Shown: in pieces, positions 1,270 through 54,527 of the stretch
Layout: each line of letters begins with the position of its first letter
Position numbering within the stretch: position 1 is the stretch's first letter
Origin: a virus
Lineage: Duplodnaviria; Caudoviricetes
DNA: 57,468 bases
Strand: one strand, 5' to 3'
Virus record (IMG/VR): IMGVR_UViG_3300043099_000120
Location: 1 to 57,468 of that record
The notes under the pieces: model-generated
Seen by the model: the letters and a program-made list of their open reading frames with translations, nothing else
What the model was told of the DNA's origin: nothing
The model's database searches: none
Made by a program: the position numbers and the translations under genes

Positions 1270-2376
1270 ATGGGTCAGTTCAAGCCGATGGTCAAGATGG
1301 AGACCACGGAGCCCACCGTTGAGCTCAAGCTCAAGAAAGGTGGCAAGGTTGAGAAGAAGATGCAGATGGGTGGTTCGCCAGACATGGCGGCTCCCGCAGC
1401 TCCTTCGATGCCGGCCCGTGGCGGAATGATGCCCCCTGCAACGCCGATGCGCCCCTCGCTGGCTGCTCGTCGTCGTGCGATGCGTGCGATGCCTTCTGGT
1501 GCTGCTCCCGCGGCTCCGGTGGGGATGGCCGGTCGCATGATGAAAGAGGGCGGTGAGAGCAAGGCCGAGCACAAGGCTGAGATGGCCAAGACCGCAAAGG
1601 CGTTGAAAGAACACGCCGGCAAACCCGCTAGCAAGGCTCACAAGGGCCTGAAGACTGGCGGCGTGGTCATGGGCCAGGGTGGCTACAAGCACGGCGGCAT
1701 CATCAACACCGAGGGTCAAGGTGGCGAGTATCGCGACACCAAGATGCACGACGGTGGGAAAGAGCACAAGACGCCCAAGAAGACCGGCGAGGTCGTGATG
1801 GGCAAGCCCGGTGGTTATGCGACCGGGGGCGTGGCCAAAGCTAATGCGGGCGGCTATAAAAAGGGCGGTGCCGCAAAAAAAGCTTTCGCTACGGGGGGAG
1901 TTGTTAATAGCGGTGCCCCCGTAGCGATGCCTCAAGGCCGCAAAAAACCTAGTGCTCCGGTATCAATTACCGCGTTGTCTGGCACCTTCAAGAAAGGCGG
2001 CAAAGTTACAGCTGCCGAGGGTCGTCTGCACAAGAACTTCGAGAAAGAGAACGCTACGGCCATGAAAGAGGCCAAGGCGTACTCTAACGAGGTTTACAGC
2101 AAGTACGGCAAGAAGATGGCCGGTGGCGGCGTTCCTTCAGCGGTTCGTGACCAGAGGCAGACTGAAGAAAATCAGCGAGCCTATGAAAACTGGGAACGAT
2201 CGCAAACGCAAGAGAACGAAGCCATGAGGAATGCTATTACAGGGTTCCCGCGGAAAGTGATGAGGGGCATCAAGGGGTTGTTCTCGTCTGGTGCGCCGAA
2301 GGGTAGCGTGACGGAAACCGAGAAGTCGGTGACAGTGACGCCATCCAAAAAGCGCGGAGGCGCGGTGACCTGTTGA
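1270..2376 (+). CDS. Basic low-complexity protein with about 12 hydrophobic/Lys-x-x-GG motifs (probable internal head protein)
   Basis: AAAGGAGG RBS before ATG 1270; motifs LKKGG, MQMGG, MKEGG, LKTGG, YKHGG, MHDGG, YATGG, YKKGG, FATGG, FKKGG, MAGGG, KKRGG. Confidence 0.8.
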   Translation: MGQFKPMVKMETTEPTVELKLKKGGKVEKKMQMGGSPDMAAPAAPSMPARGGMMPPATPMRPSLAARRRAMRAMPSGAAPAAPVGMAGRMMKEGGESKAEHKAEMAKTAKALKEHAGKPASKAHKGLKTGGVVMGQGGYKHGGIINTEGQGGEYRDTKMHDGGKEHKTPKKTGEVVMGKPGGYATGGVAKANAGGYKKGGAAKKAFATGGVVNSGAPVAMPQGRKKPSAPVSITALSGTFKKGGKVTAAEGRLHKNFEKENATAMKEAKAYSNEVYSKYGKKMAGGGVPSAVRDQRQTEENQRAYENWERSQTQENEAMRNAITGFPRKVMRGIKGLFSSGAPKGSVTETEKSVTVTPSKKRGGAVTC

Positions 2377-2418: not shown

Positions 2419-3201
2419 ATGATGAGTACAACTATCTCGTCAATTACAAGGCAAGGGGCATACGAGCCTTTTGAGTTGCAAGTCGCTCGCGGACAGATTC
2501 AGGGCCACAGAAGTGTTGTTGTGTTTGGTTTTAATCCGGACGTAGACACCTCGCAGGTATCAGTCTGGCCGTTGCCAAGCCTAATTACGTTTCCGGCCGC
2601 TGCACTGCAAATGACAGTAAGTTCGTCAAACGCAAACGATACGGCGTTAGGCACAGGAGCCCGTACAGTTGTTGTGCAGGGGTTGGATGCCAACTACAAC
2701 GAAGTAAGTGAGACGGTCACGCTAAACGGGCAGACTGCCGTTACGATGACGGCGTCCTTGCTTCGAGTCAATTATGCTTATGTGCTCACGGCTGGATCTG
2801 GAAACGGCGCTGCTGGTGACATCTACATAGGCACTGGTGTTGTAACAGCAGGCGTTCCTGCAACCACATACGACGTTATCAAGTTTGACTACAACACCAC
2901 AATAACTGGAAGTTGGACGGTTCCCGCGGGTTACACCGCATACGTCTCCCAGGGGTTGTTTTCATCTGGTCAAGCGGGTGGTTCTAATCAAGTTCAAGGC
3001 AGACTGTTGACGAGAGGAACAGACAACATTCGGCGCACCGCCGCAGTTACGAGTATCAACAATGGCGTGGCAGACTATGTGTTTGAGTATCCAATCGTGA
3101 TCCAAGAAAAGACAACAATTGAAGCAACAGCAATTGGTAGTTCTAACAACAATGCTGTTTCGTCAATGTTCATCTTGGTGTTGGTCAAAGAAGGTCCGTA
3201 A
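2419..3201 (+). CDS. Hypothetical beta-rich structural protein
   Basis: 260-aa T/V/G/S-rich ORF in the structural block; its TAA overlaps the next ATG. Confidence 0.75.
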   Translation: MMSTTISSITRQGAYEPFELQVARGQIQGHRSVVVFGFNPDVDTSQVSVWPLPSLITFPAAALQMTVSSSNANDTALGTGARTVVVQGLDANYNEVSETVTLNGQTAVTMTASLLRVNYAYVLTAGSGNGAAGDIYIGTGVVTAGVPATTYDVIKFDYNTTITGSWTVPAGYTAYVSQGLFSSGQAGGSNQVQGRLLTRGTDNIRRTAAVTSINNGVADYVFEYPIVIQEKTTIEATAIGSSNNNAVSSMFILVLVKEGP

Positions 3202-3605
3202 TGCCAGCAAAGACCCAAGCGCAGTTTCGGCTGATGAAGGCCGCGGAGAACAATCCGACGTTTGCGAAGAAGGTTGGCATCAAGCCTAGTGTGGCGGCGG
3301 AGTTCACGTCGTCTAACGTAGGCAAGAAGGCCTACGGCAAACTGCCGGAGCGCATGAAAAAGGGCGGACCTAGTCTGGCCATTGGGCGAGGCGAAAAACT
3401 GCCTGCAAAGCAAGGTGCCGGGCTGACGGAGAAAGGCCGGGCAAAGTACAATCGCGAGACAGGCAGCAACCTGAAGGCACCGCAGCCGCAGGGAGGGCCG
3501 AGGCGGGACTCGTTCTGTGCCAGGATGGGTCCAATTGCACGCAGTAGTGAACGGGGGAGCCGCGCTCGAGCCTCAATGAAGCGCTGGAATTGCCCCGGTT
3601 GGTAG
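3201..3605 (+). CDS. Small basic phage protein (DUF6321-like) with a MKKGG motif
   Basis: GLTEKGRAKYNRETGSNLKAP...RRDSFCARM...RWNC pattern recalled from DUF6321; translationally coupled to the upstream gene. Confidence 0.65.
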   Translation: MPAKTQAQFRLMKAAENNPTFAKKVGIKPSVAAEFTSSNVGKKAYGKLPERMKKGGPSLAIGRGEKLPAKQGAGLTEKGRAKYNRETGSNLKAPQPQGGPRRDSFCARMGPIARSSERGSRARASMKRWNCPGW

Positions 3606-15927: not shown

Positions 15928-16428
15928 GTGGCTCCTCTTATCGCAAGTATCGTATCGGGTCTGATCTCCAACAACCTGCCGAAGGTTGCCCAGGCAGTCG
16001 TTGATAAGGGTCTGGACTACGTGCAGGAAAAGACCGGCATCGAGCTAAAGCCTGACATGAACCCGGAGGAGGTGAAAGCCCTGCGGGAAGCGGCTCAGAA
16101 GCATGAAGAGTTCAAAATCGAGCAGGCGAACAAGAACACGGCTGATGCTCGAGCCATGCAGGTAGCAGCGTTGCAGCAAAATGATACGTTTGCCAAGCGG
16201 TACGTCATGTACTTGGCGACGTTCTGGTCGATCACTGCCGTGATGTACATCTTTCTGATCACGTTCACTAACATCCCGGAAACGAACGTGAGGTTTGCGG
16301 ATACGATCCTCGGGTTCCTTCTGGGCACTGTCGTTGCCACCATCCTGAACTTTTTCCTCGGGTCGAGCGCAAGCAGCAAGGAGAAGACGGAAGTGTTGGC
16401 GGCTGAACTTAAAGAGCAGAAAAGATGA
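15928..16428 (+). CDS. Holin-like protein (3TM/GTA-holin-like)
   Basis: D..DARAMQ motif followed by two TM helices and NFFLGSS..SK.K; located in the lysis cassette. Confidence 0.7.
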   Translation: MAPLIASIVSGLISNNLPKVAQAVVDKGLDYVQEKTGIELKPDMNPEEVKALREAAQKHEEFKIEQANKNTADARAMQVAALQQNDTFAKRYVMYLATFWSITAVMYIFLITFTNIPETNVRFADTILGFLLGTVVATILNFFLGSSASSKEKTEVLAAELKEQKR

Positions 16429-16817
16429 GTTCCGCGGTCAAGTCTGATCCTGGCAAGTGGAAACGGATTGTTTCCTCTGTCAAAGCGAGCAGCAAAGGCG
16501 GCAAGCCGGGCCAATGGAGCGCCAGGAAGGCGCAGTTAGCCACCCAGAGATACAAAGCCTCTGGCGGGGGTTACAAAGGGCCTAAAAAAGCCGATAATTC
16601 GCTCACAAAGTGGACGAAGGAGGACTGGGGTACCCGGTCTGGAAAGCCGTCTACGCAGGGTCCAAAAGCTACGGGTGAGCGCTACCTCCCCCGGCAGGCT
16701 CGAGAGAAGCTAACCGCTTCGGAGTACGCCGCTACGACACGCGCCAAGCGTGAGGGGACGCGGCAAGGTAAGCAGTACGTCCCGCAGCCTGAGTCAATCA
16801 AGAAAAAGGTGTGGTGA
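16425..16817 (+). CDS. Small basic protein (DUF5872-like)
   Basis: GQWSARKAQL...YKASGGGYKG...SLTKWTKEDW...GERYLP...GKQYV pattern, family recalled from memory. Confidence 0.65.
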   Translation: MSSAVKSDPGKWKRIVSSVKASSKGGKPGQWSARKAQLATQRYKASGGGYKGPKKADNSLTKWTKEDWGTRSGKPSTQGPKATGERYLPRQAREKLTASEYAATTRAKREGTRQGKQYVPQPESIKKKVW

Positions 16818-22266: not shown

Positions 22267-25200
22267 ATGGGCTGGGTACGAGAAAAAACAGGCATCGAGC
22301 TCAACCCGTTCAAGGTTGCTGAGAGCGCCTTAAACAAGATTGGCGATGTTGTTCAGAACATCATGGAGAACCCATTGCCGGCAATCCTGCAGATTGCAGG
22401 AGCGGCGATAGGAATTCCTCCGTATGTGACCTCCGCAGCAATCACGGCGGCGCAAGGCGGCAACATCAAGGACATCGCCAAGTCCGCGGCGATTTCGTAC
22501 ATCACGTCCGATTTCTTGCAGAACACGCAGATCGGGGCAGACATCCGCAACTACACGTCCAATTTGGTTGCTGGTGATGTCACCGACTACATGATCGAGA
22601 ACTTTGACATCACTGCGGATCAAGCAATCAAGGTGGCGAAACTCTCTACGGCCGCACTCAATGGTGCGGTGGTAGGAGGCATCCGCGCCACCTTGACGGG
22701 CGACAGCATCGCTACGGGCATTGGATCTGGGTTCTCGCAAGGTCTCGTGTATTCAGGCGTTGACAGCTATTTTGATGACCTGAACAAGGATCAGAACTGG
22801 GGACTTGGGAAAAAGACGCTCAACATGATCAAGGGTGCAACAAGCACTGCTTTGAACACGTTGATCAGTGGAAAGGGAGATCCAGCGGCTGCGGTAGGCA
22901 ACTACATCGCCTACGCCACATTGAAGCTTGGTACTTCAGAAGCCAAAACAGCTTTACAAAGAGCCTACGAAGACCTTACTGGCAAAACAGACGAAGCCAA
23001 AGCCGCACAAGACGAATTAGTGAAGTTGCAAGCGGAGTACAACACGCAACTGAACCGTCACAACGAGTTGGTCAACTACGCAAACACCCAAAAACAATCA
23101 TATGACATGTATGTTGGGAACTATCAACGGAGCATTGAAAGCTTTAATTCGTCTATAGAAAGAGATCAAACTGACTATGAACGAACGCTCGCGAGCTTGA
23201 AAAGACAACAACAAGACTATGAGGTGTTTGCAAATGCTGCAAGAACCACCGGGCATCCCGAATATGTAACGTTAGCAAACACTGCCGCAGAGCGAGTCAA
23301 TCAGTATGCTGAACAGCTCAATTCAATTGTTGAATCAGCAAACACTCGGGCAACGAGAGAGTTGTCTATTTTAGAGAGCGAGAAAAAGGTAATAGAGCGA
23401 TACGATGCAGAGCTTGTAAGGCTATCAGATGGAATTGACACGCTACGCAAAGAACTGGAAACGCCGCAAAACGGCAATCTAGCGGAGCGTTTGCAGAAAG
23501 CCGCCAAAGACTACGAGGTCAAATATGCGAACTACAAAGCTTCGGAAGATGGAAAAAACAGGGCTGCAGAGAATTACAACAAGATTGTTGCGGAAGTTGC
23601 TACGCGTGATGCAACGATTGATGCGATCAACGCAGGAGCCATCACTGTTACCGGCCGTACCGCTGATGGTGGTTTCCAACTAGACAACGGCATGATAGTG
23701 AAGGACGGAAAGTTCTATCAGGGGAACGAACCGGTCTTCAGCAATGCGGCGGGTCTGCAACAGAACATGCTAGAGCTCATCGACAATGATGGGCAAGTGT
23801 ATCGGTACGGTATGGATGCCGGTCGGCAGATGTCAACGACAGACATTCAGAACGCGTTCCGCCGGGACTATCAAATTGAATTGTCAGATGCTGAAGCGCA
23901 ACGGTTCGTCGGCGGAAAATATGGCACATATGATCAGCAGAAGTTTGATGACTTTGCGAAAGCACGGGCGCAAGAAACGTATCGCCTGATTGCTGGCCGG
24001 CCAGCAACACAAGAACAACTCAACCAATTCGTGCAGTCGCCAAATAGTCAACAAGCAGCAAGTAACGCCGCGATTCGGGTAACTACTAATGACAGCACGA
24101 TTGTAGACAATGCATCGGCGTTGTCTGTCCGAGAAACAGCGGCACGACAAGTGATCGAAGGGTATTACAAGCAAGGATTGACAGCAGAACAAGTCGAAGA
24201 AAAGCTGGCATCCGGTCAAGCAAATCGGGACATGCAAACGCTTGTAGATCAACGGAAGTTGATTGTTGATCAGCAAATTCAAGGCGTGAAGAACGCTGAA
24301 GCGCAATACGGGGTCAACAGCCCACAGTACAAACAAGCGTACCAGCAAGCTTTAGATCAGATGTCTAAGCTGGGCGGTTATGACGTTATTAGGAATGCGG
24401 ACGGTTCGTTCTCGCACAGCACCTTTGGGCGGCTTGATCAAGAAACGATGATGCCGATGACGGATCGAGCCTACACAGATCCCGTCACAGGAAAACAGTA
24501 CCCGGACAAGGTTGAACAACAGGCAACCGGAAGCTTTGACACGCGTGATGTAGGGATCGTCAAAGCGCGTTTGTCCGATATGTTGGATGATCCAAAGGCA
24601 AACCCTGCGGATCTGTCGACGAAGGAGATGAATAGCTTCGTAGAAAACTTTGCAAAAGCAACGCCACAACAACGCGCAGAGTTGTTGCGAGGAGCCGATA
24701 GCAGCACGTATCAAGTCATCAACGACATGTTCCAAAGCTACTCTGGAGTGGCGGAACGGATGTCGGGTCAGACGTATGAACAGCCGTCCGTTGTAGGAAG
24801 TCTCAAAGAGTCAGATCTGACCAACTACCAGCAGGTGCTGAAGACTGGTCTGCGTGGGGCGGCAGCGGATATTGTTGGCCTGGGTACGCGTGCGGGACAG
24901 CTCGTTGGCGATCTATTGGGATACGACACGCCAACGCTCGACAAGCTGCAAGATCTGATGACTAAAGACAAGCAGACCAACATGGACAAGTTGGTCGGCA
25001 ACGAGCAAGCAGTGGCTGGAGGCTTGGCTTCTGGAGTTATCTCTGCGATTACGTTTATCGCTGGCGGGCCTATGGCAGCCGTGGCGACCATGGGTGGAAT
25101 CGCTGCGAACAACGCTTGGATTGAAGGCGCAAACGCGGTCATTGACAAAGACAACAACGCGTACCGTAGTGAAGAAGAAGCGCGAAAAAATGGTGTGTTT

Positions 25201-28200
25201 GAGTACCGCAAGCTGACGCCCGAAGAAAACGGTATGCGGACGGCGATGATGACGGCCGCGGAAATGGTCGGCGAAGCGCTGGGGGCAAAAGCACTTGGCA
25301 TGGTCATGAAGGGTGTCCCGATCAGTGGCAGCCCGAGTGAAATCATCGATGCAACGCGGCGCATTGCGGTAGGCATGCTGGGCGAGCAAGCGACCGAACA
25401 ATTGACGACGGCGATGCAGATGGCCGCAGACAAGTGGACATCTGTGGGCCTTGGGAAGAACGCAACGTTCGAGGACTATCAGAAGGCGATGATGGACACC
25501 GCCATCGCAACAGCGGTTGCGGTAGGTACATCAACGTCGGCCGGTACGCTTGCGACCAATTTGCGTAATGCATCGCAGACGCCCAACTTGTTCTCGCGAG
25601 ATACGCGAGAGACGGAAGTTGAACCAACGTTGCCCTCGTTAGTACAAACGTTCAAAGAATCTGGTGTTACGAACGTTGAGACGATCGTCAAAGAGTTCCA
25701 AGAGACCATTCAAAATGGTGGCCAAGGCGTTGAAGTGGTGCGAGACAACACTGTCAACACGCTAGTTGATGCAGGGGTATCGAAAGTTCGCGCAGAAATT
25801 CTGGCGAATGAAATGTTAGACCGTGCGTTGTCAACCAAAATTGAAGAAGATCTTAAGGTTAAAGGCCTGTCAGATGCAGAGATTGCATCGATTACGAAGC
25901 CAATCAAAGACATTACAAACGACTTTATCAAGGGCGAAACATCACCTGAACAAAAAGGATTTGATGAGTTGTTTCGCGTGTTGACAGATCCGCAGTTACA
26001 GCAGACGTTGTATCCGGAAAAGGTCACGCCCACTCCAACAACGCCGGACACGCCGCCGGTTACTCCGACGACGCCAACGGTTCCGACTACACCCACAACT
26101 CCAACGGTACCGACTACGCCAACGGTTCCGGAGACACCAACAACCCCGACAACACCAACGACCGATCCGGCGTTGACGCAGTTGCGCAGCGATCTCACGC
26201 AACAGATTGCGGATGCGCGAGCGCAAGGCAAGAGCGAAGTCGAGGCTGTGCAGCAAGCGGTAAATACCGTCGCAGCAAACCTGGGCACTACCAAAGAAAC
26301 GATTCTTGCGCAGTTGGGCACTACGGAAGCGCAGTTGCGAGCGGACGTTGCAAGTCAGGTGGGTGGAGTGGAATCCAGGTTGAGCGCAGCTATTGAAGCC
26401 GCCAAGCAGTCCGGCATGGAAGGCGATGCGGCTTTGCAAGCTGGGATCAATACGGTGTCTCGTGATCTTGGGATAACGAAAAACTCGTTACTGTCACAGC
26501 TGGGCAGGACCGAGCAACAATTGCGATCAGACTTTGCTGGGCAAATCGCAAGCGTCAGCAGTCAGGTGTTCAATGTTCAAACTAGTCTTAGCAACGCTAT
26601 AGCCGCGGCTAGGGCTGCTGGTGCGTCTGGTGATGCTGCGTTGCAAACAGGACTTGACAAGGTTGCGAGCGATCTAGGCACAACCAAAGAACAATTGTTA
26701 ACGCAACTGGGGAAAACGGAAGAACAGTTGCGGGCAGATGTTGCAAGCCAAGTGGGTGGCGTGGAATCCAGGCTCACCGCGGCTATTGATGCTGCTAAAC
26801 AATCAGGCATGCAAGGTGATGCCGCGTTGCAAGCCGGCATCAATCAAGTAGCGTCAGAACTTGGTACAACCAAAGAACAGTTGCTGGCACAGGTTGGAAA
26901 GACCGAAGCGCAGTTGCGTGCAGATATGCAAGCGCAAATCGGTGGCGTTGAAACGCGATTGATTGAGGCTATTCAGCAAGCACGTCAATCAGGCTTGCAA
27001 GGCGATGCGGCTCTCCAGGCTGGGATTGATACAGTTGCTTCGGATATTGGGGCCACTAAGGAACAGTTGCTTGCGCAAGTAGGTAAGACTGAAGCACAAC
27101 TTAAAGCCGATATGCAGGCGCAGGTTGGAGGCGTGGAGTCACGTCTGACCGCAGCAATTGCAGAGGCCCGGCAATCCGGATTGCAAGGGGATGCAGCGCT
27201 TCAAGCCGGTATTGACAGGGTTGCGTCGGATCTCAACACAACGAAAGACATTGTTCTTGAGCAAGTTGGAAAGACCGAACAACAACTGCGGACAGATTTT
27301 GCATCGCAACTAGGCGGGGTGCAGCAACAGATCGGACAGGTGCAGACCGATCTGACCAAAGCGATTGCAGATGCAAAAGCTGCCGGCGCGACCGACGTGC
27401 AAGCCGTTCGCGACGCTTTGGCCACCGTATCAACAAGCCTGGGAACGACGCAAGAGGCGTTGCTGCAACAACTAGGGAAGAGCGAAGCCGATCTGCGTGC
27501 TGAGTTCCGTGCGGGGCAACAAACAACGCAAGAACAAATTGCAGACCTGGGATCAACGTTCATGCAGCAATACGATGCATTGAACGCAGCACAGAAGGCC
27601 CAGTTTGACGCGTTGGTTGAGCAAGGCAGCAACCTGCGGTCTGCGATGAATCTTGTGCAAACACAGACGCAAGAGCAATTGCAGAACGTTGAAACCCGTC
27701 TGCGTGATGCCATGGCTGCTAATGAAGCCGCCGGAATGTCTCGGGATGCAGCGGCGACTAAAGCGATCCAAGACGTTGCTACAAGCGTTGGAACAACGAA
27801 GAGCGAGCTGCTAGCACAGGTTGGCAAGACAGAAGATGTATTGCGTAGTGAACTGGCAACAGGCCTTGCGCAAACGCAAGAGCAGATTCGTAGCGAATTG
27901 CAATCACAATACGATCAATTGACTGCCTCGCAAAAGGCGCAGTTTGATGCAATGGTCGAGCAGGGTGCCAATCTGCGTACCGCGATGGATCTTGTCAGAT
28001 CTGAGGCGCAAGCCGCGCAGGAACAGACGCGAGAGCAGATCGCCCAATTGGATGTCAGCACTCAAGCGAAGTTTGAGCAGATGTCGGAAGCGCAGCGGCA
28101 GCAGGCGCTGCAACTTGCGCAAACCTCTGGAGACCTGACCACAGCAATCAATAACGTTGCTGCTACGACCGCAACGCAGATCACGGGCGTAGAGACCCGA

Positions 28201-31200
28201 TTGCGGGATGCTATAGCGGCAAACGAAGCCGCTGGTTTGTCGCGAGACGAAGCAATTACAAAGTCGATTACCGATGTTGCAGCAAACCTGGGAACCACAA
28301 AAGATGCGTTGCTGGCGCAACTGGGAACGTCTGAGCAAGTTTTGCGGTCAGAATTGACCGCCGGCTTGCAAGCAACGCAGCAACAGTTAAGCCAACAACT
28401 TCAAACGCAATATGACCAGCTAACGGCCGCGCAGAAAGCGCAGTTCGATGCGTTGATCGAGCAGGGAGCGAATTTACGCACAGCGATGGATCTGGTGCGG
28501 TCTGAAGCTCAAGCGGCACAAGAACAAACGCAGCAGCAGATTGCGCAGCTGGACGCCAACACGCAATCGAAGTTCAATCAACTGTCGGATGCGCAGAAGC
28601 AACAAGCGATTGATCTTGCCAGAACGTCTGGCGATCTGACGACGGCAATCAATAACGTTGCGGCTACGACGGCCACCCAGATTACAGGCGTGGAAACGCG
28701 ACTGCGCGAAGCTATGGCCGCTAACGAGGCGGCAGGCCTGTCGCGAGACGAAGCGGCAAACAAAGCGATTCAGGATGTTGCAACGAGCGTTGGCACAAGC
28801 AAAGAGCAGTTGTTGTCGCAACTTGGAAAAACCGAACAGACCTTGCGCGGCGAGTTGGCGGCGGGGCTGGCAGGGGTGCAGACAGGCTTGGAAAGCCAAA
28901 TTGCAGGCGTGCAGAAGAACTTGAACGACGCAATTGCTGCAAACGAAGCAGCAGGATTGTCGAGGGACGCCGCGATTACGAAGTCCATCACCGATGTTGC
29001 GACAAGCCTGGGTACAACAAAGGAGGCGTTGCTAGCGCAACTTGGTACGTCAGAGCAAACGCTCCGGTCAGAATTGGCTGCTGGGTTGCAGCAGACGCAA
29101 CAGCAGTTGAGTCAACAGATGCAGGCGCAATACGACAGTTTGTCGGCTGCGCAAAAAGCCGAGGTGGATGCTCGTGTTCAACAAGGCCAGGATTTGACGG
29201 CCGCGATGCAGGCTGTTGGGCAGCAAATATCGCAACAACTATCGCAATCAGAAACGGCGCTCCGACAAGCGATTGGTCAACTGGGGACGAATGTTCAGGG
29301 TCAGTTTGATCAAATGAGCGCAGCACAAAAAGCGGAAGTTGCTGCACGCGTACAACAAGGGCAAGACTTGCAAGCGGCAATTCAGGGTGTTAGCGAGCAA
29401 ACGCAACAACAGATTGCTCAGTCCGAGACCGCGTTGAGACAAGCGATTGGGCAGCTTGGTACAAACGTACAAGGGCAGTTTGATCAGATGTCGGCTGCGC
29501 AGAAAGCCGAAGTAGCCGCGAGGGTGCAACAGGGGCAAGATCTATCAGCAGCTATTCAGTCTGTTGGTGCGCAAGCAACGCAACAAATTGCACAAACTGA
29601 GACTGCGTTGCGTCAGGCTATTGGCCAACTAGGAACCGATGTTCAAGGCCAATTCAATGCCATGGACGCTGCGCAAAAAGCGGAAGTCGCTGCGCGTGTC
29701 CAGCAGGGGCAAGATCTTCAAGCCGCGATTGCAAACGTCGGAGCTCAGACCGAACAGAAGCTGGCGCAGACGCAGGCTGGACTCGAGGCAGCGATCGGAC
29801 GCCTGGGGTCGGACGTGCAGTCGCAGTTCTCGCAGATGGACGCAGCACAGAAGGCTGAAGTCGCTGCTCGCGTTCAGCAGGGACAAGATCTACAGACGGC
29901 CATCGCAAACGTAGGCACGGCCACGGCGCAACAAATTGCGCAGAGCGAGGCTGGTCTTCGCGAAGCAATCGGTCAGCTGGGAACCAACGTTCAGGGTCAA
30001 TTCGATGCGATGACCGCGGCACAGAAGGCTGAGGTTGCCGCCAGGGTCCAGCAAGGTCAAGACCTTCAGACGGCGATTGCCAACGTAGGAACGCAGACGC
30101 AGCAACAGATCGCGGCGTCAGAAACTGCGATGCGCGAAGCCCTTGGTCAACTGGGTACGGATGTTCGCACGCAGTTTGATCAGATGTCCCAGGCGCAGAA
30201 GGCTGAAGTCACGGCCAGGATGCAGCAAGGACAGGATCTTCAGACGGCAATCCAGAACGTTGGGCAACAGGCGTCACAACAGCTGACGGAAGCGCAGACG
30301 GCGTTGCGCGGGCAGATCACGACGCTTGGTGAGGATCTGCAACGTCAGTACAACACGATGAGCGATGCCCAGCGCGAAGAAGTTGCGCAGCGTGTTCAAT
30401 TGGGTCAGCAGCTGGATGCAGCAATTTCAAACGTTGGGATGCGGATAGGGCAAGTTGAAGAAAAACTGACACTAAACGTCGAAGATTTGCGCAAACAGAT
30501 TGCTGCTGAGAATGCTCGGAAGGCCGCAGCCGATAAAGCGGCGGCGGAAAAACAGGCTCGTGAAAAAACGTTGCAACTTGGCCAACAAGCAGTAGCAACG
30601 CCTGAAGGAACTCCAACTCCAGAAGCGCAGTTCCGTGGCCCCATGATGACTGGTGAGGCCAAAGATACCGAATTCAAAGGCCCCCTTGAAGAATTCTTCA
30701 AGAAAGTTGAGCAAACTTCGTACACGGCACCGCCAGGACAACCTATGCAGCAACCACAACCGACTCAGGTGGCGCAACAACAGACTGCGCAGCCAGCACA
30801 ACAAGGCCCCAACTACTATTCGTATGGGGTGTTCAACGAGATTGACCAGATTTTGAATCCGCTATCGAGTGCGATGCCCTCGATGTTTGCGAAAGCGGGT
30901 GGTCTGGCAACCCCGATGTTTGCGCAGGGTGGCTTGAATGTGGTGCATCACTCTGGCAAAGAACGGTTGGATTTCCGGCAGGGAGCCGCGGTCAGTGGCC
31001 CTGGGGACGGGCAGTCGGACGACATCCCAGCGATGCTGGCTGACGGGGAGTTTGTCTTCCCGGCCGATGTTGTTGCAGCCCTGGGGAATGGATCTACTAA
31101 GGCTGGAAGCGATAAACTATACGACATGATGCATTCCATCCGGGCGCACCACCGGTCGGCAAGACCTGAAGATCTGCCGCCTCCGGCTAAAAAATCGCCT

Positions 31201-31230
31201 TTGGACTACCTGAAGAAGGCTAGGAGATAA
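22267..31230 (+). CDS. Giant putative internal virion/ejection protein (2987 aa) with Q/A-rich repeat arrays and a C-terminal GPGDG-SD-GEFV domain
   Basis: Uninterrupted ORF with hydrophobic G/A helices, coiled coils, a Pro/Thr linker and 62-, 167- and 58-aa repeats; ends FAQGG...GPGDGQSDDIPAMLADGEFVFPADVV. Confidence 0.8.
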   Translation: MGWVREKTGIELNPFKVAESALNKIGDVVQNIMENPLPAILQIAGAAIGIPPYVTSAAITAAQGGNIKDIAKSAAISYITSDFLQNTQIGADIRNYTSNLVAGDVTDYMIENFDITADQAIKVAKLSTAALNGAVVGGIRATLTGDSIATGIGSGFSQGLVYSGVDSYFDDLNKDQNWGLGKKTLNMIKGATSTALNTLISGKGDPAAAVGNYIAYATLKLGTSEAKTALQRAYEDLTGKTDEAKAAQDELVKLQAEYNTQLNRHNELVNYANTQKQSYDMYVGNYQRSIESFNSSIERDQTDYERTLASLKRQQQDYEVFANAARTTGHPEYVTLANTAAERVNQYAEQLNSIVESANTRATRELSILESEKKVIERYDAELVRLSDGIDTLRKELETPQNGNLAERLQKAAKDYEVKYANYKASEDGKNRAAENYNKIVAEVATRDATIDAINAGAITVTGRTADGGFQLDNGMIVKDGKFYQGNEPVFSNAAGLQQNMLELIDNDGQVYRYGMDAGRQMSTTDIQNAFRRDYQIELSDAEAQRFVGGKYGTYDQQKFDDFAKARAQETYRLIAGRPATQEQLNQFVQSPNSQQAASNAAIRVTTNDSTIVDNASALSVRETAARQVIEGYYKQGLTAEQVEEKLASGQANRDMQTLVDQRKLIVDQQIQGVKNAEAQYGVNSPQYKQAYQQALDQMSKLGGYDVIRNADGSFSHSTFGRLDQETMMPMTDRAYTDPVTGKQYPDKVEQQATGSFDTRDVGIVKARLSDMLDDPKANPADLSTKEMNSFVENFAKATPQQRAELLRGADSSTYQVINDMFQSYSGVAERMSGQTYEQPSVVGSLKESDLTNYQQVLKTGLRGAAADIVGLGTRAGQLVGDLLGYDTPTLDKLQDLMTKDKQTNMDKLVGNEQAVAGGLASGVISAITFIAGGPMAAVATMGGIAANNAWIEGANAVIDKDNNAYRSEEEARKNGVFEYRKLTPEENGMRTAMMTAAEMVGEALGAKALGMVMKGVPISGSPSEIIDATRRIAVGMLGEQATEQLTTAMQMAADKWTSVGLGKNATFEDYQKAMMDTAIATAVAVGTSTSAGTLATNLRNASQTPNLFSRDTRETEVEPTLPSLVQTFKESGVTNVETIVKEFQETIQNGGQGVEVVRDNTVNTLVDAGVSKVRAEILANEMLDRALSTKIEEDLKVKGLSDAEIASITKPIKDITNDFIKGETSPEQKGFDELFRVLTDPQLQQTLYPEKVTPTPTTPDTPPVTPTTPTVPTTPTTPTVPTTPTVPETPTTPTTPTTDPALTQLRSDLTQQIADARAQGKSEVEAVQQAVNTVAANLGTTKETILAQLGTTEAQLRADVASQVGGVESRLSAAIEAAKQSGMEGDAALQAGINTVSRDLGITKNSLLSQLGRTEQQLRSDFAGQIASVSSQVFNVQTSLSNAIAAARAAGASGDAALQTGLDKVASDLGTTKEQLLTQLGKTEEQLRADVASQVGGVESRLTAAIDAAKQSGMQGDAALQAGINQVASELGTTKEQLLAQVGKTEAQLRADMQAQIGGVETRLIEAIQQARQSGLQGDAALQAGIDTVASDIGATKEQLLAQVGKTEAQLKADMQAQVGGVESRLTAAIAEARQSGLQGDAALQAGIDRVASDLNTTKDIVLEQVGKTEQQLRTDFASQLGGVQQQIGQVQTDLTKAIADAKAAGATDVQAVRDALATVSTSLGTTQEALLQQLGKSEADLRAEFRAGQQTTQEQIADLGSTFMQQYDALNAAQKAQFDALVEQGSNLRSAMNLVQTQTQEQLQNVETRLRDAMAANEAAGMSRDAAATKAIQDVATSVGTTKSELLAQVGKTEDVLRSELATGLAQTQEQIRSELQSQYDQLTASQKAQFDAMVEQGANLRTAMDLVRSEAQAAQEQTREQIAQLDVSTQAKFEQMSEAQRQQALQLAQTSGDLTTAINNVAATTATQITGVETRLRDAIAANEAAGLSRDEAITKSITDVAANLGTTKDALLAQLGTSEQVLRSELTAGLQATQQQLSQQLQTQYDQLTAAQKAQFDALIEQGANLRTAMDLVRSEAQAAQEQTQQQIAQLDANTQSKFNQLSDAQKQQAIDLARTSGDLTTAINNVAATTATQITGVETRLREAMAANEAAGLSRDEAANKAIQDVATSVGTSKEQLLSQLGKTEQTLRGELAAGLAGVQTGLESQIAGVQKNLNDAIAANEAAGLSRDAAITKSITDVATSLGTTKEALLAQLGTSEQTLRSELAAGLQQTQQQLSQQMQAQYDSLSAAQKAEVDARVQQGQDLTAAMQAVGQQISQQLSQSETALRQAIGQLGTNVQGQFDQMSAAQKAEVAARVQQGQDLQAAIQGVSEQTQQQIAQSETALRQAIGQLGTNVQGQFDQMSAAQKAEVAARVQQGQDLSAAIQSVGAQATQQIAQTETALRQAIGQLGTDVQGQFNAMDAAQKAEVAARVQQGQDLQAAIANVGAQTEQKLAQTQAGLEAAIGRLGSDVQSQFSQMDAAQKAEVAARVQQGQDLQTAIANVGTATAQQIAQSEAGLREAIGQLGTNVQGQFDAMTAAQKAEVAARVQQGQDLQTAIANVGTQTQQQIAASETAMREALGQLGTDVRTQFDQMSQAQKAEVTARMQQGQDLQTAIQNVGQQASQQLTEAQTALRGQITTLGEDLQRQYNTMSDAQREEVAQRVQLGQQLDAAISNVGMRIGQVEEKLTLNVEDLRKQIAAENARKAAADKAAAEKQAREKTLQLGQQAVATPEGTPTPEAQFRGPMMTGEAKDTEFKGPLEEFFKKVEQTSYTAPPGQPMQQPQPTQVAQQQTAQPAQQGPNYYSYGVFNEIDQILNPLSSAMPSMFAKAGGLATPMFAQGGLNVVHHSGKERLDFRQGAAVSGPGDGQSDDIPAMLADGEFVFPADVVAALGNGSTKAGSDKLYDMMHSIRAHHRSARPEDLPPPAKKSPLDYLKKARR
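26026..26165 (+). repeat. Pro/Thr low-complexity linker (TPTTPTVP)n
   Basis: TPTPTTPDTPPVTPTTPTVPTTPTTPTVPTTPTVPETPTTPTTPTT. Confidence 0.9.
26362..27500 (+). repeat. Imperfect tandem 186-bp (62-aa) coding repeats
   Basis: GGV(E/Q) anchors at 26362, 26755, 26941, 27127 and 27313; 186-bp spacing except the first interval (393 bp, two units, one of them longer). Confidence 0.85.
27691..29100 (+). repeat. Imperfect tandem 501-bp (167-aa) coding repeats
   Basis: ETRLR anchors at 27691, 28192 and 28693. Confidence 0.85.
29130..30450 (+). repeat. Eight imperfect tandem 174-bp (58-aa) coding repeats
   Basis: QKAEV/QREEV anchors at 29152, 29326, 29500, 29674, 29848, 30022, 30196 and 30370. Confidence 0.9.
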
Positions 31231-47198: not shown

Positions 47199-49724
47199 AT
47201 GGAACCCGTCCGTGAAGACGAGATGAAAGCCTACGAGCCGACGATGCGAGAGCGAATCGCGTCTGGCTTGCAGTCAGCGTTCGAGGGCCTGGGAGCCAAC
47301 CGTTACAAGGCCCGGCAGCGAGCGCAGACAATCACTGGTGGTCAGAGCAGCAACCTCCCGCTCGGCATGGGCGTGGCGGATGTTGTCTCCGCGGTCAGCC
47401 TGCCGGCCACGATGGCCATGGCCCCGATCTACGCCGAAGAGGGTATCCGTGACATCAAGTCGGCTGGACAAGCAGCCGGACGAGGCGACTACGTCGGCGC
47501 GGGTGTTGAGGGCCTGTTCGGGGCGCTAAACCTCCTGCCGGCCGTCAGTGGCGTGACAGGATTAGCCAGAAGGGCGATCGGCCAACCAATCAAACCGCCA
47601 GCAATACCGGACACTCCCAGAATTACAGAGAGCCCATATGAAACAGCCCAAGAAGGACCGTTCTACCGAGTCAAGCCGCGATTTGCTCAAGAGGCTGGAC
47701 CAAAAGCTCGCGGAATACGAGAAGAAGTACCAGCCGAGCCTGTCGGAGGACCAGCTGGCGGCGATGTTCCGCAACCAGCTCAGATCGATGCCAAGGCGCT
47801 GATTGCCGACCCGACGAACTTCGTCAGGCGGGCGGCAGACGATTACAGCCAGCGGGCGCTAGGCAAGCCCTATGAGCTGCCGAAGATGCCGAAGGCGGCG
47901 CTCGCCAAGCAGAGCGGTATCGGTCGCACCTTCCAGCTGGCAGCGTCGGATGACCCAGGATACAAGCGAGCGGTCTTCGAGGCATATGGGCGGCAGTTCC
48001 CGGACATCGTCGAGGCCACAGGCGCTCAGAACTACGATCAGCTGATGGAGGCGGCGTACCGGCAGCTGGCCAAGGAGACCAAGGACCAGTTCGATACGCT
48101 GCCGATCAATATGTCGTTCTATCGGGGCGGTGAAGGCGCATACGAGAACAGCCCGCAGATGCTGCGAGACGTGTACGGCAACCGGCATATGTACGTCTAC
48201 CAGGGAGGCCAGCCGCATGACTTCCTGAACGCCGTCGATCCGAACACGGGATTGAATGCCAACGAGATGTTCCGGGCAGTGCATGACTTCTACGGGCATG
48301 CGGTGCATGGCAACCCGTTTGGCCCAAAGGGCGAAGAGATCGCCTATGGGGCGCACTCGCAGATGTTCTCGCCGCTCGCCAGGATGGCGATGGCCAGTGA
48401 GACGCGGGGCCAGAATTCGTTCGTCAACTATACGCCGCTGAACGCCGAATTGATGCAGCGCATCAACAGGATGAACGGCGTTCGATACGAAGCGAAGCGG
48501 GCGCGGGATCAGAAGACGGTCGCGGAGATGGACGCCCTGCTACGTGAAGCCTGGGGCGGCTTTCAGTTTGCGCCGCAAAAGAGTCTGCTGCTGCCGCCGG
48601 AGTACCTCGATCCACAGTTTACGGGCGGCGTGCCAAGCTACATCCAGCCGTTGATCAAGCCGGAGCCCGGCACGACGACCGCGGAGAGGCTGACGCACTT
48701 CAGCCAGTCGCCGGAGCTCGAGGCGCTCGATCCACGGCGTTACGGCACAGGGATTGCTGGCGAGGAAATGGGCCGGCTGAAGTACACGCAGAACCCGGTG
48801 ATGGAACGGTCCTACTTCTACACCGGCGAGAACCCGCGGCCGGAGCCCGGCCTGGGGCCGTACCGGTACGGTGCTGAGAGCCAGGGGCTGTATAACCTCG
48901 AGGAAGATCCTGTGCGGTTGCGGACGCTGGCAGCTGAAGCGAACCGCACGCCTTACACGTCACCGTACAACCAAGGGATCACCGATCCGGGTCAGACGAT
49001 CACTGACATCGAGCGTATGGCCAAAGAATACGGATACGAAGGGATTGTGAATCCTCAGCAGCGGACGGCGGTGATGTTCAACCCGACGCCAGTGCAACGG
49101 TATCAGCGCGGCGGAGCCGTGAAACAGAAGGTCAAAGGGGCGTTGAGACAAGCCATCGACATTCTGTCGCCAGCAGAACGCGAAGCCAACAAGGCGAAGT
49201 TTTTGGAAGAGAGCAAGGTGCAAGAGCGGTTGTATCACGCGACCCCGAGAGACTTCTCAGAGTTCATGCCGGGCGGAGAAAACCCGGCTGTCAGTGGGCC
49301 GGCAATCTGGATGTCACCGAGCGCGACAAACCAGCCGGCGGCTCACAACATCAGAACCATCCCTGGTAAGCCTGGGCATGTCTATCGCGATCCGAAAATG
49401 TATACGCCGGGCACGAACGTCATGCCGTTGTATTCGTCAATCAAGAACCCAGTGGTTGCAACTGAGGCGACATGGAAACAAGACTTCAAGCCGTTTGGTG
49501 GAGGAAGCCCATGGACGATGACGGCGGAAGAAGTGCAGCGGATGAAAGAAGCTGGCCATGATGGGATTCTGTACTACAACAAGAACGGCGCTCTTGAGGA
49601 AGTGATTGCGTTCGAGCCGCAACAAGTCAAGTCAGCGATCGGCAACCGAGGAACTTACGACCCGGCCGAACGAGACATCACGAAAGCCCGCGGCGGTTTA
49701 GCGGCCATTACACGGAGAAAATAA
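47199..49724 (+). CDS. Polyvalent protein: HDxxGH metallopeptidase-like domain, ART-like domain and ART-PolyVal-like ADP-ribosyltransferase
   Basis: FRAVHDFYGH...GEE.AY..H...ETRGQN; LTHFS...RSYFY...GYEG; LYHAT...F..F...VMPLY..IKNP...GHDG...AFEPQQVKSAIGNRGTYD. Confidence 0.65.
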   Translation: MEPVREDEMKAYEPTMRERIASGLQSAFEGLGANRYKARQRAQTITGGQSSNLPLGMGVADVVSAVSLPATMAMAPIYAEEGIRDIKSAGQAAGRGDYVGAGVEGLFGALNLLPAVSGVTGLARRAIGQPIKPPAIPDTPRITESPYETAQEGPFYRVKPRFAQEAGPKARGIREEVPAEPVGGPAGGDVPQPAQIDAKALIADPTNFVRRAADDYSQRALGKPYELPKMPKAALAKQSGIGRTFQLAASDDPGYKRAVFEAYGRQFPDIVEATGAQNYDQLMEAAYRQLAKETKDQFDTLPINMSFYRGGEGAYENSPQMLRDVYGNRHMYVYQGGQPHDFLNAVDPNTGLNANEMFRAVHDFYGHAVHGNPFGPKGEEIAYGAHSQMFSPLARMAMASETRGQNSFVNYTPLNAELMQRINRMNGVRYEAKRARDQKTVAEMDALLREAWGGFQFAPQKSLLLPPEYLDPQFTGGVPSYIQPLIKPEPGTTTAERLTHFSQSPELEALDPRRYGTGIAGEEMGRLKYTQNPVMERSYFYTGENPRPEPGLGPYRYGAESQGLYNLEEDPVRLRTLAAEANRTPYTSPYNQGITDPGQTITDIERMAKEYGYEGIVNPQQRTAVMFNPTPVQRYQRGGAVKQKVKGALRQAIDILSPAEREANKAKFLEESKVQERLYHATPRDFSEFMPGGENPAVSGPAIWMSPSATNQPAAHNIRTIPGKPGHVYRDPKMYTPGTNVMPLYSSIKNPVVATEATWKQDFKPFGGGSPWTMTAEEVQRMKEAGHDGILYYNKNGALEEVIAFEPQQVKSAIGNRGTYDPAERDITKARGGLAAITRRK

Positions 49725-51226
49725 TGTCACTCGACCGCCTGAAGCGCCTGCTTGGCGAAGAGCCCAGTGCCATCAAGCCATTCCCGACGACGGTAAAGAT
49801 GGCCCGCGGCGGAGCGGCAAAGCAGGAAGTCAAAGAGTCACTGTTGCAAGCGATCAATTCGATCCGCGATAAGTTTGCAAAGAAGGCCGAAAAAACTAAG
49901 GGTGAGCCAATTGCAAATGAGCGGACGATCACGTCAGCGGTAACTCGAGCAGCGGCGGATATTCAAAAGGCCAATCCGAAGATGGCGGATGCCGATGTTG
50001 CCAAGCGGGCAGAGCGCGAGGCACTGTCGCGGCTAACTTGGGAACGGTCCGAGAAGCCTGACATCGAGGCAAGATACGGATTGCTTGAGCAGTCATCGTT
50101 CCGTGACCCGTTGGCCAAGCGACTGCGCAACCTACCGGAGGTGGTAGAGCAGCGAGCCAGGAGGGCGGAAGAGTTCCTTGCGCAGCCTACAGAGCCCTGG
50201 AAGCCGCCGCCTCCCGAGTTGCAGGCGTTCGACCGGTCGCTCATCAAGGATGCGCTGGAAGGATTCCCAGGGATCGAGCAGACCCGGTTCCCGCGGTACC
50301 AGCCGGCACGTGCGGACACCGGGTACATCGACGAGATCTACGATGACCCGAGGAATCGCGAGCTGATCAAGAAGCAGATCCAGCGCGGTCTGCCGTTAGG
50401 CGGCGAGACCTTCTATGCCAGTCTGTATCCACTGAAGGTCGCGGCCATGGAGCGCGGCATACCGGCAGAGGCCTTCGAGCAGTTTGTGTATCAGACCGCA
50501 CCGGCTAGCGCCCGCAACAGCATCATGAATGAGATGGCCGTGGGGCAGTTCCTGCGGGACATGAAGGCGCGGGGATTGCCGCTCGATGAAGACACGGTCA
50601 AAGCGGAGATGGATCTCTTCAAGACTAAGTATGGAACGGGCCTGCCACTAATGCCGGTGCATCGCGAAGGCGTGCGGCAGGTAATTGAAGGCGGCTTGAA
50701 TATGCGCGACATGTTGAAAGCCGACATCCCGACAAACTACAAGATCCCAACGTATGGCACGCAGAAGGCAGGCGACTTCGGCAAGAGCATGGTGCTGGAC
50801 GTGCATGAGTCAGCGGGGCAAACGCAAGGCAGTCGCTATCATCCATACTTCACTGAGCAAGGTGGATTTGGGCCGACAGAATATGGTGCGGCCGAGAGCA
50901 AGATGCTTGACATCGCCAACGAGCTGGGTATTCCAGGCGGTATGGCGCAAGCCGGACGATGGTTTGGTGGCGGCGAATTGACCGGATTGAAATCTCCCCG
51001 CGGGGACGCGCTAGACCTATTGGAAAGGCAGGCGGCGTATACCATGCAGGGCCTGGGAATCAAACCAACGCCAGCAAATATTCGGAACTACCTGCTGGAT
51101 ATGATCGAAACCGGGGAGGGCGTGTTGATGCCGTATTTCAAATCAACGCCCTTGCCAGATGTTCGCACGCAGAAAAAAGAGGGCGGCGAAGTAAAATCTG
51201 GGCTGTCCGTACTGAAAAGGGCGTAA
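49724..51226 (+). CDS. Cargo-like protein with an HhH-GPD/glycosylase-like C-terminal signature
   Basis: K..TY....G.....VLDVH...Y...E..M..IA.ELG.....AQA..W; flanked by MARGG and KKEGG. Confidence 0.5.
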   Translation: MSLDRLKRLLGEEPSAIKPFPTTVKMARGGAAKQEVKESLLQAINSIRDKFAKKAEKTKGEPIANERTITSAVTRAAADIQKANPKMADADVAKRAEREALSRLTWERSEKPDIEARYGLLEQSSFRDPLAKRLRNLPEVVEQRARRAEEFLAQPTEPWKPPPPELQAFDRSLIKDALEGFPGIEQTRFPRYQPARADTGYIDEIYDDPRNRELIKKQIQRGLPLGGETFYASLYPLKVAAMERGIPAEAFEQFVYQTAPASARNSIMNEMAVGQFLRDMKARGLPLDEDTVKAEMDLFKTKYGTGLPLMPVHREGVRQVIEGGLNMRDMLKADIPTNYKIPTYGTQKAGDFGKSMVLDVHESAGQTQGSRYHPYFTEQGGFGPTEYGAAESKMLDIANELGIPGGMAQAGRWFGGGELTGLKSPRGDALDLLERQAAYTMQGLGIKPTPANIRNYLLDMIETGEGVLMPYFKSTPLPDVRTQKKEGGEVKSGLSVLKRA

Positions 51227-53785: not shown

Positions 53786-53921
53786 CCCGAAAGACGCGCT
53801 CCACATCCCGATGCACAAGCGTATCGCCATGGGCGAGAAGCTTGATGGCACGTCGTTGCAACCCAAGGGCCAGCAGCCCGCGAAGAACGGAGGCGGACTA
53901 TCGCAAGCTAAGAAAAAATAA
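53772..53921 (+). CDS. Small basic protein (49 aa)
   Basis: GGAGG RBS, GTG start; ...IPMHKRIAMG...KNGGGLSQAKKK. Confidence 0.65.
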   Translation: MATSNPKDALHIPMHKRIAMGEKLDGTSLQPKGQQPAKNGGGLSQAKKK

Positions 53922-54103
53922 TGGCGACACTAGGTGACCTTATTGGTCAAATCAAGGCGTCACAGGCTGAAATAGCCTTGTCCTTAGCGCAGGGAAATGC
54001 GCTTAATTGGGACGCCTACCAACGACTGGTCGGGAGACATGAAGGGCTGCAAGAAGCTCTGTTGATTCTCGACAACCTGATGAAGGGTGATGATGATGAG
54101 TGA
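53921..54103 (+). CDS. Conserved small head-module protein
   Basis: LAQG.A..WDAYQRLVG...GL..AL; between the portal and GroES genes. Confidence 0.75.
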   Translation: MATLGDLIGQIKASQAEIALSLAQGNALNWDAYQRLVGRHEGLQEALLILDNLMKGDDDE

Positions 54104-54527
54104 ACCGGTAGCGGTTAACCCCGCTGAATTGGCTTGGGCATTTCCGAGCGTGGACCCCGGTGCAAAGCCTCTTGGTGGCCGTATTCTGGTGCAACTGCGG
54201 CGCACAAAAAAGAAGACGACGAGTGCTGGGATTATCTTGGTTGAAGAAACCAAAGAAACCGAAAAGTGGAACAACATGGTGGCCAAGGTCATCGAGATTG
54301 GTCCGCTCGCTTTCAAACACCGGGACACGATGCAGTCCTGGCCGGAAGGCTCGTGGTGTCAGGCAGGCGAGTACATCCGCGTGCCGAAGTGGGGCGGCGA
54401 TCGTTGGGAAGTCAAAGTTCCTGGCGAAGATGACAAGGAAGACCCGGCGCTCTTTATGATCCTGAACGATCATGAGGTGATCGCTAAGGTCACGGGCAAT
54501 CCGCTGGCGATGAGGGCATTCGTATGA
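54096..54527 (+). CDS. groES: GroES/Cpn10-like co-chaperonin
   Basis: KPLGGRILV...KTTSAGIIL...AKVIEIGP...GEYI.VPKWGG...ILNDHEVIAKV. Confidence 0.85.
   Translation: MSEPVAVNPAELAWAFPSVDPGAKPLGGRILVQLRRTKKKTTSAGIILVEETKETEKWNNMVAKVIEIGPLAFKHRDTMQSWPEGSWCQAGEYIRVPKWGGDRWEVKVPGEDDKEDPALFMILNDHEVIAKVTGNPLAMRAFV

Follow-up and report, generated by a model that had tools for sequence, protein, structure and literature searches.

A directional hydrophobic-x-x-Gly-Gly motif in a basic phage protein and at module junctions and tails of other proteins of its lineage: a possible docking element for injected virion proteins

Little is understood of how tailed phages select the proteins that they pack and inject when they have neither a prohead protease nor a MuF-type adaptor. 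In phage T4, internal head proteins share an N-terminal targeting peptide that is removed by gp21 at L/I-x-E. Here, we describe a peptide motif, hydrophobic-x-x-Gly-Gly, repeated in a basic protein (the repeat protein) encoded at 1270–2376 on the + strand of the IMG/VR virus record IMGVR_UViG_3300043099_000120. The window analyzed is the whole record of 57,468 bases, coordinates are positions in it, and other open reading frames (ORFs) are named by their first position. Copies of the motif, called tags below, also occur at module junctions and C-terminal tails of other proteins. We report this motif together with its direction and conservation, the places in which it occurs and its restriction to one lineage, following up an earlier note made from the DNA letters. 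Capsid targeting in T4 is alike in idea, since a short peptide common to unrelated internal head proteins brings them into the prohead; it differs in that the T4 tag is N-terminal and cleaved, whereas the tags here are internal or C-terminal and no prohead protease was detected in the window.

Processing at Gly-Gly (GG) is another described setting for such sequences. At adenain, ubiquitin-like, papain-like and double-glycine leader sites, the hydrophobic residue stands at P4 (hydrophobic-x-G-G). The GG-specific processing by adenain and African swine fever virus pS273R, and that of ubiquitin-like and double-glycine precursors, is similar to the present case in that a hydrophobic residue followed by Gly-Gly lies at the borders of mature parts. 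It differs in that the spacing here is hydrophobic-x-x-G-G, no clan CE, C39 or other peptidase was found in the window, and split genes keep the tag.

Polyvalent proteins of phages and conjugative elements have been described in PMC5512222, where, in the main text, metallopeptidase domains are proposed for processing and 'glycine' and 'linker' have 0 occurrences. The 47199 protein resembles those proteins in having an ART-PolyVal domain, in its position among head genes and in the shuffling of modules between relatives. It differs from them in that no metallopeptidase domain was found here, and the polyvalent proteins of phage F116, which have the same ART module, do not have such tagged junctions.

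The closest parallel in form is the targeting peptide of encapsulins. According to PMC10960027, Family 1 targeting peptides (GSLxIGSLK, GGDLGIRK, GSLGIGSLR and LTVGSLRR) bind inside an HK97-fold shell. They are short C-terminal peptides with Gly, two hydrophobic residues and a basic end on unrelated cargo, similar to the ends ..KKKGGLAALRK, ..GGLSALRK and ..SGLSVLKRA found here. However, the G-S-L core of that consensus is absent here, the motif is also internal and present in 12–20 copies in one protein, and the head is DNA-filled with a separate scaffold. The likeness is one of style, not of sequence.

The repeat protein and its motif

The gene and its motif copies are as follows.

1270..2376, + strand: gene of the repeat protein, 368 residues, Gly/Lys/Ala-rich, basic and predicted to be mostly disordered (homologues, AlphaFold2)
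nt 1330, 1360, 1540, 1648, 1669, 1684, 1744, 1816, 1855, 1885, 1987 and 2116, + strand: 12 hydrophobic-x-x-G-G copies
2347..2361, + strand: terminal KKRGG

The earlier note had described a basic, low-complexity ORF with about 12 copies of the motif. The ORF is real, 12 copies were counted and all the sites listed in that note were found in their places. The start is the Met at 1270, as homologues open with MGQFKPMVKM; the conserved N-terminus reads MGQFKPMVKM..EPSVELKLKKGG and the C-terminus KKRGGAVTC. The protein has a pI of 10.18, with 66 Lys and Arg against 30 Asp and Glu, and 55 Gly.

Eighteen GG positions are present in the protein. Leu, Met, Tyr or Phe stands three residues before the first Gly in 12 of them, compared with 1.67 expected, and 0 of 2000 shuffles reached 12 copies, while 1 of the 18 sites has a hydrophobic residue at the mirror position after GG. 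Using a position matrix trained on 71 homologues, with a site defined as a score of at least 4 bits, the protein gave 15 matches, whereas its reversed sequence gave 1 and shuffling within 15-residue blocks left 0.58. Since reversal and shuffling failed to reproduce the matches, the repeat is real and directional and not a by-product of composition. A frequency no higher than composition predicts, which the earlier note had named as grounds for giving up its claim, is therefore excluded for this protein.

The motif profile was obtained from 1033 GG sites in 71 distinct complete homologues. Position −3 of GG is Tyr in 29%, Met in 19%, Leu in 14% and Phe in 8% of the sites, together 70% against a background of 13.5%. 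Position −2 is Lys (46%) or Ala (26%), and the second residue after GG is Val (30%) or Ala (22%). The motif is thus hydrophobic (Y/M/L/F), K or A, x, G, G, x, V or A, with about 12–15 copies in the repeat protein. Insertions in homologues are extra motif copies, and members of 647–752 residues hold more of them. The invariant motif positions are written by 16–27 different nucleotide strings, and since the codons vary synonymously, selection acts on the protein. A recombination linker at the nucleotide level was also considered and ruled out, because the motif codons vary freely.

Homologues were confirmed at 562 loci in one IMG/VR scan. A word-indexed protein search gave 5054 proteins at E ≤ 0.001 among 8000 candidates, and the best 120 of these were 54–99% identical and unnamed. 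The protein had no Pfam family at E ≤ 1, no PHROG and no PDB profile match, and ESM Atlas searches with it and with the 55447 protein returned unnamed viral clusters only. A tblastn search against phage records gave no match, probably due to the low-complexity filter; the phage record MW202545 nonetheless encodes a homologue. An alignment of 63 sequences shows no variation in the first 25 residues, in the terminal Cys or in most GG pairs. Conservation also extends through the regions that separate the 12 sites, four predicted helices among them, so that the whole is conserved as one protein, and a few relatives binned with metagenome-assembled genomes have a different C-terminal end.

The AlphaFold2 (AF2) model of the protein, built with the family alignment, has a mean predicted local distance difference test (pLDDT) of 50.3, with 208 of the 368 residues below 50 and four helices only. 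The protein, which is encoded in the virion structural module, is predicted to be mostly disordered, and disorder is the usual setting for linear motifs. The motif, the protein family, DUF6321 and the function of the C-terminal module described below were not found described in the literature that could be searched. The motif and the family are a real, conserved and undescribed feature of putative function.

Tags at module junctions and protein tails

The tagged features outside the repeat protein are given here with the portal gene, which serves as a reference point.

3201..3605, + strand: small basic protein with an N-module (MPAKTQAQFRLMKAAENNP..), MKKGG at nt 3354–3368 and DUF6321 at residues 73–129 (PF19846, E = 1.3e-13)
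16425..16817, + strand: small basic two-module protein (phrog_17747 and phrog_14910; weak DUF5872), with the junction YKASGGG at nt 16551–16571
22267..31230, + strand: tape-measure-like ejection protein of 2987 residues, with apolipoprotein-like helical repeats and a C-terminal part that matches tape-measure PHROGs
30886..30933, + strand: two tags, FAKAGG and FAQGG, directly upstream of the C-terminal module (homologue alignment)
31003..31227, + strand: ultra-conserved C-terminal module GDGQSDDIPAMLADGEFVFPADVVAALGNGSTKAGSDKLYDMMH..LPPP..KSPLDYL (homologues)
47199..49724, + strand: polyvalent protein of 841 residues, with a middle domain (phrog_3170), YQRGG at nt 49101–49115, ART-PolyVal and the tail KARGGLAAITRRK (tag at nt 49683–49697)
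49724..51226, + strand: module protein of 500 residues, with MARGG at nt 49799–49813 and the tail KKEGGEVKSGLSVLKRA (tag at nt 51173–51187)
51230..53785, + strand: portal protein (phrog_1216, E = 5.5e-18)
53811..53921, + strand, start uncertain: short ORF directly after and overlapping the portal gene, ending NGGGLSQAKKK

The DUF6321 core was found in 64 distinct ORFs, 54 of them fused to an N-module and 10 stand-alone. GG lies at most 9 residues before the core in 54 of the 54 fused ORFs, with a hydrophobic residue at −3 in 51, and the same junction is used by at least three unrelated N-modules. The MKKGG noticed earlier between the two parts of the 3201 protein is thus a conserved junction tag. 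The stand-alone ORFs that were read open with MAKN.., MAKKN.. or MSKKK.. and have no GG; in them, Met occupies the position of the hydrophobic residue. Among 17 ORFs made of the N-module only, the tag forms the end of 13, such as ..AKMRGGGSCW and ..YKDAGGGYRD, and is missing from the end of 4. Split genes of the 3201 type break at the junction tag, and the upstream piece retains it with nothing to cut off, as would be expected of a tag more than of a site that serves for cleavage only. The 16425 protein of the window is the fused counterpart of the second of these N-modules. The N-module of the 16425 type is a separate ORF ending YK.AGGGYRD in L023, L030, L031, L063 and L073.

As a separate observation, the repeat protein has an invariant C-terminal Cys (2362–2373), and split N-modules end in S/T-C-W (L080:5719, L025:5037). 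These ends resemble the ..NCPGW end of DUF6321 and may be a disulfide or a metal ligand.

In the 47199 protein, Pfam gives one ART-PolyVal domain at residues 677–819 (PF18760, E = 9.6e-13, 49.5 bits against a cut-off of 31.2), not the two ART-like domains claimed before, and the middle domain has no Pfam family at E ≤ 1. The combination of unrelated effector-type domains, including the family-defining ART-PolyVal, makes it a polyvalent protein. Modules before the portal gene are shuffled among relatives: the middle domain is a separate protein ending in YQRGGLAAIKRRV in L004, and longer proteins in L015, L041, L067 and L068 contain the 49724 module as an internal fusion. Of the 26 distinct tails of the ORF directly before the portal gene, 22 contain GG among their last 24 residues, 16 of them with Lys or Arg at the end. 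The short ORF after the portal gene lies in a reading frame open from 53703 onward, in which Met codons occur at 53811 and 53829. It was matched in 30 related loci, and the tails listed (about 14) are GGLSQAKKK-like.

The C-terminal part of the 22267 protein matches tape-measure PHROGs at E of 3e-6 to 1e-4. Both GG pairs of its two tags are at least 90% conserved in the alignment and in 150 representatives, and at E ≤ 1e-3 the module after them is present in 13,949 representative clusters. Among the 150 representatives that were listed, the module is at or near the C-terminus of proteins of 97–3022 residues, one of them ending about 34 residues earlier. About 60 residues of the module are nearly invariant, and so, taken as a whole, are the last 75 residues of the 2987-residue protein across these representatives. 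The module also aligns to the tape measure proteins of mycobacteriophage Douge (8zdo_S, two copies, E = 0.007) and of JBD30 (8rk3_A). These read (hydrophobic)-A-x-G-G-x-V-x-GPGTGxSDxIPxxxSxGEF, and the 2987-residue protein is similar, with its tags followed by G-D-G-Q-S-D-D-I-P-A-M-L-A-D-G-E-F-V; it therefore has the pattern G-x-G-x-S-D-x-I-P-x-x-L-x-x-G-E-F preceded by (hydrophobic)-A-x-G-G. Caulobacter phage RW and MW202545 share this arrangement, whereas the repeat protein carries the tag without the module. The function of the module is not stated in the parts of PMC10038345 and PMC11445458 that were available, and a text search for the motif strings gave no paper.

The earlier note had named the stretch 30919–31150 within this region as one candidate partner of the motif peptide. 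AF2 of the 125-residue C-terminal module alone gave a pLDDT of 53.5 and no fold of its own, which does not support a role as the reader of the motif. From this model, the module looks like another conserved anchor peptide and not an enzyme. A small Ser-Lys peptidase reading the tags was also considered for the module and dropped, as no fold is predicted.

Counts with the matrix gave a different result for the window and for the relatives. In the window outside the repeat protein, 3 matches were found against 0.96 expected, which is not significant (47199 protein, residue 638; 49724 protein, residues 29 and 487). The sites of the 3201, 22267 and 53703 ORFs and the C-terminal site of the 47199 protein score below the threshold, and their significance comes from conservation in homologues alone. 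The loose hydrophobic-x-x-G-G pattern was not enriched in the proteins named by the earlier note. The recurrence of the motif in unrelated proteins is therefore not borne out by the window alone, and it is borne out by conservation in homologues. Homologues also support its position at module junctions and C-terminal tails of unrelated structural, probably injected proteins.

For the pooled count, 995 non-redundant ORFs from 80 related loci were used, leaving out the homologues of the repeat protein (including L058_4622). They contain 102 matches, against 10 in the reversed sequences and 18.9 in local shuffles, with 57 ORFs having at least one, and the last 25 residues contain 27 matches against 2.7; since the counted ORFs are mutually related and the matrix was trained on the repeat protein, these ratios overstate the number of independent events. 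Separately, the fibre-like protein at 7974–9188 has a repeat of its own, L-[LVI]-[LI]-G-G-G, unrelated to the tag, so that the loose pattern looks enriched in it (7 against 1.9).

The distribution of the tags was compared among relatives. Roseobacter phage CRP-901, which has the same order of head genes, has one match in 25 structural proteins and lacks the C-terminal module. Five contigs without the repeat protein (metagenome-assembled bins), with capsid proteins 62–80% identical, gave 1 match among about 100 ORFs, and Caulobacter phage RW has tags only beside the C-terminal module. MW202545 encodes a repeat-protein homologue of 449 residues and has tags in its polyvalent protein and in a small protein ending FKKGGKVNW. 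As judged from these sequences, the tags fit a lineage-specific set that accompanies the repeat protein.

Docking, hinge, cleavage and GroEL readings

The head genes that bear on a possible receptor or reader are the following.

54087..54527: GroES/Cpn10 homologue inside the head module (PF00166, E = 2.4e-6)
54524..55444, + strand: probable scaffolding protein, candidate receptor (from position and a helical, acidic-then-basic make-up)
starting at 55447 and at 56013: unassigned conserved head-module proteins
56598..57468, + strand, running across the 127-bp repeat and ending at nt 171: major capsid protein of 304 residues, candidate receptor (PF25209, E = 2.9e-11; Mu gpT)

Our tentative reading, which we put somewhat short of an even chance, is that the motif is a multivalent docking element, by which virion proteins that are internal and injected are anchored. 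A short adhesive peptide on each module would hold it to an abundant receptor that all modules share within the procapsid; candidates for this receptor are the inner capsid wall, the scaffold and the packaged DNA. Using that receptor too, the repeat protein would act as a multivalent hub or filler. The 47199 and 49724 proteins, the DUF6321/DUF5872-type proteins, the post-portal peptide and the ejection-protein anchor would form the tagged set, most likely carried in the capsid and injected. The tag stays with the upstream module, is lost from the lone downstream module and is multiplied in a disordered protein, which suits docking and is awkward for pure cleavage.

By its matches to PF25209 and Mu gpT, families with the HK97 fold, the major capsid protein is an HK97-fold shell protein. 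By analogy with encapsulins, an encapsulin-like cargo system, in which the tags and the 12–20-copy hub would dock injected modules at a common site of the HK97-fold head and the set would be changed by swapping, may be imagined and is rather improbable. The capsid gene was found whole in L002:4107-5018. In 60 related loci, the capsid protein is 88–100% identical, the scaffold 44–100% and the repeat protein 46–99%. The putative scaffold has phrog_28737, of unassigned function, as its sole PHROG match. Structure prediction of the complex of capsid protein, putative scaffold and repeat protein, run without controls, gave a score of 0.00 and a mark of 0.32 and speaks neither for nor against docking. 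As a side observation, the C-terminal module of the ejection protein is as conserved as the major capsid protein, which is noteworthy and proves nothing.

Several points weigh against docking. The receptors named are candidates, and the presence of the tagged proteins in virions is deduced from gene position. The motif also precedes a related module in tape measure proteins of siphophages, which lie in the tail tube, so that a receptor on the capsid wall cannot explain all occurrences. Phage RW has a tagged module without the repeat protein. The restriction to one lineage may be a single evolutionary event, and it is confounded, as relatives without the repeat protein mostly lack a polyvalent gene before the portal gene. 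To these are added the non-significant count in the window and the relatedness of the pooled ORFs. In addition, a blind homology-breakpoint test on 32 polyvalent ORFs was weakly positive, with 41 of 149 breakpoints within 10 residues of any GG compared with 18% at random, and this enrichment is weak.

If docking is true, a portable peptide of 7–15 residues on shuffled effector modules would be a simple packing rule, and the tag would be a handle to load foreign proteins into phage heads. Should the motif be no more than a hinge, what is left is a well-described family of disordered basic head proteins. Since the lineage is abundant in metagenomes, with the repeat protein at 562 loci in one scan, and the related module was found in 13,949 clusters and in tape measures, any result would apply widely.

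A passive role is possible, although we regard it as somewhat less likely than docking. The motif would then be a basic hinge cassette that moves with recombining modules, and the repeat protein a lysine-rich, DNA-neutralizing filler of the protamine or RGG/KGG type. Its excess of basic residues, its pI and its predicted disorder agree with this, as do the many tags that read K-R-G-G or A-R-G-G and the weak breakpoint result. Moreover, the linker after the tag is homologous between the 47199 (RGGAVKQKVKGALRQAIDIL) and 49724 (RGGAAKQEVKESLLQAINSI) proteins, so that common descent of the cassette accounts for some of the sharing. However, a hinge needs no direction, yet reversal reduces the matches from 102 to 10 in the pooled ORFs and from 15 to 1 in the repeat protein. 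It needs no hydrophobic or aromatic residue at a fixed distance, which is nevertheless there at 70% against 13.5%, nor near-invariant GG columns over a sequence range of 46–99%. Local-composition shuffles give 18.9 matches and not 102, and the Pfam KGG repeat was not matched at E ≤ 1. If DNA were bound by way of a defined motif, this would count as docking and not as a passive role.

Processing at the tag is, in our view, unlikely. The fused and polyvalent proteins would be polyproteins cut near GG by a phage or host protease, and the repeat protein would be chopped into basic peptides. The position of the motif at module junctions, exactly where genes split naturally, is in favor of it, and many tagged proteins have a few residues after GG, like ubiquitin-like precursors. 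Tape measure proteins are processed near their C-termini: that of T5 is processed after R1127, where the title of a cited reference implicates the host (PMC10038345), and cleavage of that of JBD30 is proposed at residue 1066 (PMC11445458), which is 12 residues past the stretch aligned to the C-terminal module of the window. However, the T5 site follows Arg and not GG.

The other evidence against processing comes from the spacing, the gene splits and the search for a protease. The hydrophobic residue is at P5, one place farther from GG than the P4 of the GG-protease consensus. The tag persists in 13 of the 17 upstream modules that have an ORF of their own, and the stretches between the sites of the repeat protein, with their four helices, are conserved as one protein. 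No peptidase family was found in any window ORF by Pfam or PHROGs, and prohead proteases of the S77/S78/U35 type were not detected in the window proteins. The absence of an HK97- or T4-type prohead protease, stated in the earlier note, was also found by Pfam, PHROGs and PDB profile searches, and PDB profile searches of the head-module families 55447, 56013 and 2419 were empty or weak, leaving all three without a lead.

The 178-residue protein at 55447–55983, between the scaffold and capsid genes, has invariant H60, C108, H129 and H130, and family, PDB and Atlas searches gave no lead for it. Since it is present in tag-less relatives too, a role for it in reading the tags is unlikely.

The mobile loop of GroES reads ..K-S-A-G-G-I-V-L... 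That the tags mimic this loop and recruit or occupy the host GroEL, in connection with the GroES-like gene of the head module, is very improbable: the phage does encode the Cpn10 homologue, and some tags (..KHGGIIN.., ..KTGGVVM..) are like this loop, but the GroES-bearing phages RW and CRP-901 and the five binned relatives are essentially without tags (in RW, only beside the C-terminal module), and the residues after GG are mostly Val, Ala or Lys instead of three bulky hydrophobics.

Genome context

The remaining genes of the window are summarized below.

starting at 195: variable protein of 343 residues
downstream of the repeat protein: small basic proteins, adaptors, fibres and a lysis cassette
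starting at 33925: further ejection-type proteins, including an SLT transglycosylase
starting at 45119: small terminase
starting at 45723: large terminase

The window is a complete podophage genome of 57.3 kb, with nearly all large genes on the + strand. The first 127 bases recur exactly at its end (1–127 = 57342–57468); this repeat may be the assembly overlap of a circular contig and not a true terminal repeat. Among named isolates, the portal protein is closest to those of the RW group of Caulobacter phages (47% identity) and of Roseobacter phages CRP-901/902. The GroES/Cpn10 homologue of the head module is shared with Caulobacter phage RW, Roseobacter phage CRP-901 and MW202545.

Contigs with the same capsid gene (L085-L130) were binned with metagenome-assembled genomes of many phyla, most often Betaproteobacteria and Burkholderiaceae. 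Most of these contigs are probably mis-binned phage, so the host cannot be deduced from the bins. Finally, a predicted metal-dependent hydrolase (PF10118, E = 6.5e-30) is encoded at 21138–21800, among virion genes and directly upstream of the ejection-protein block.

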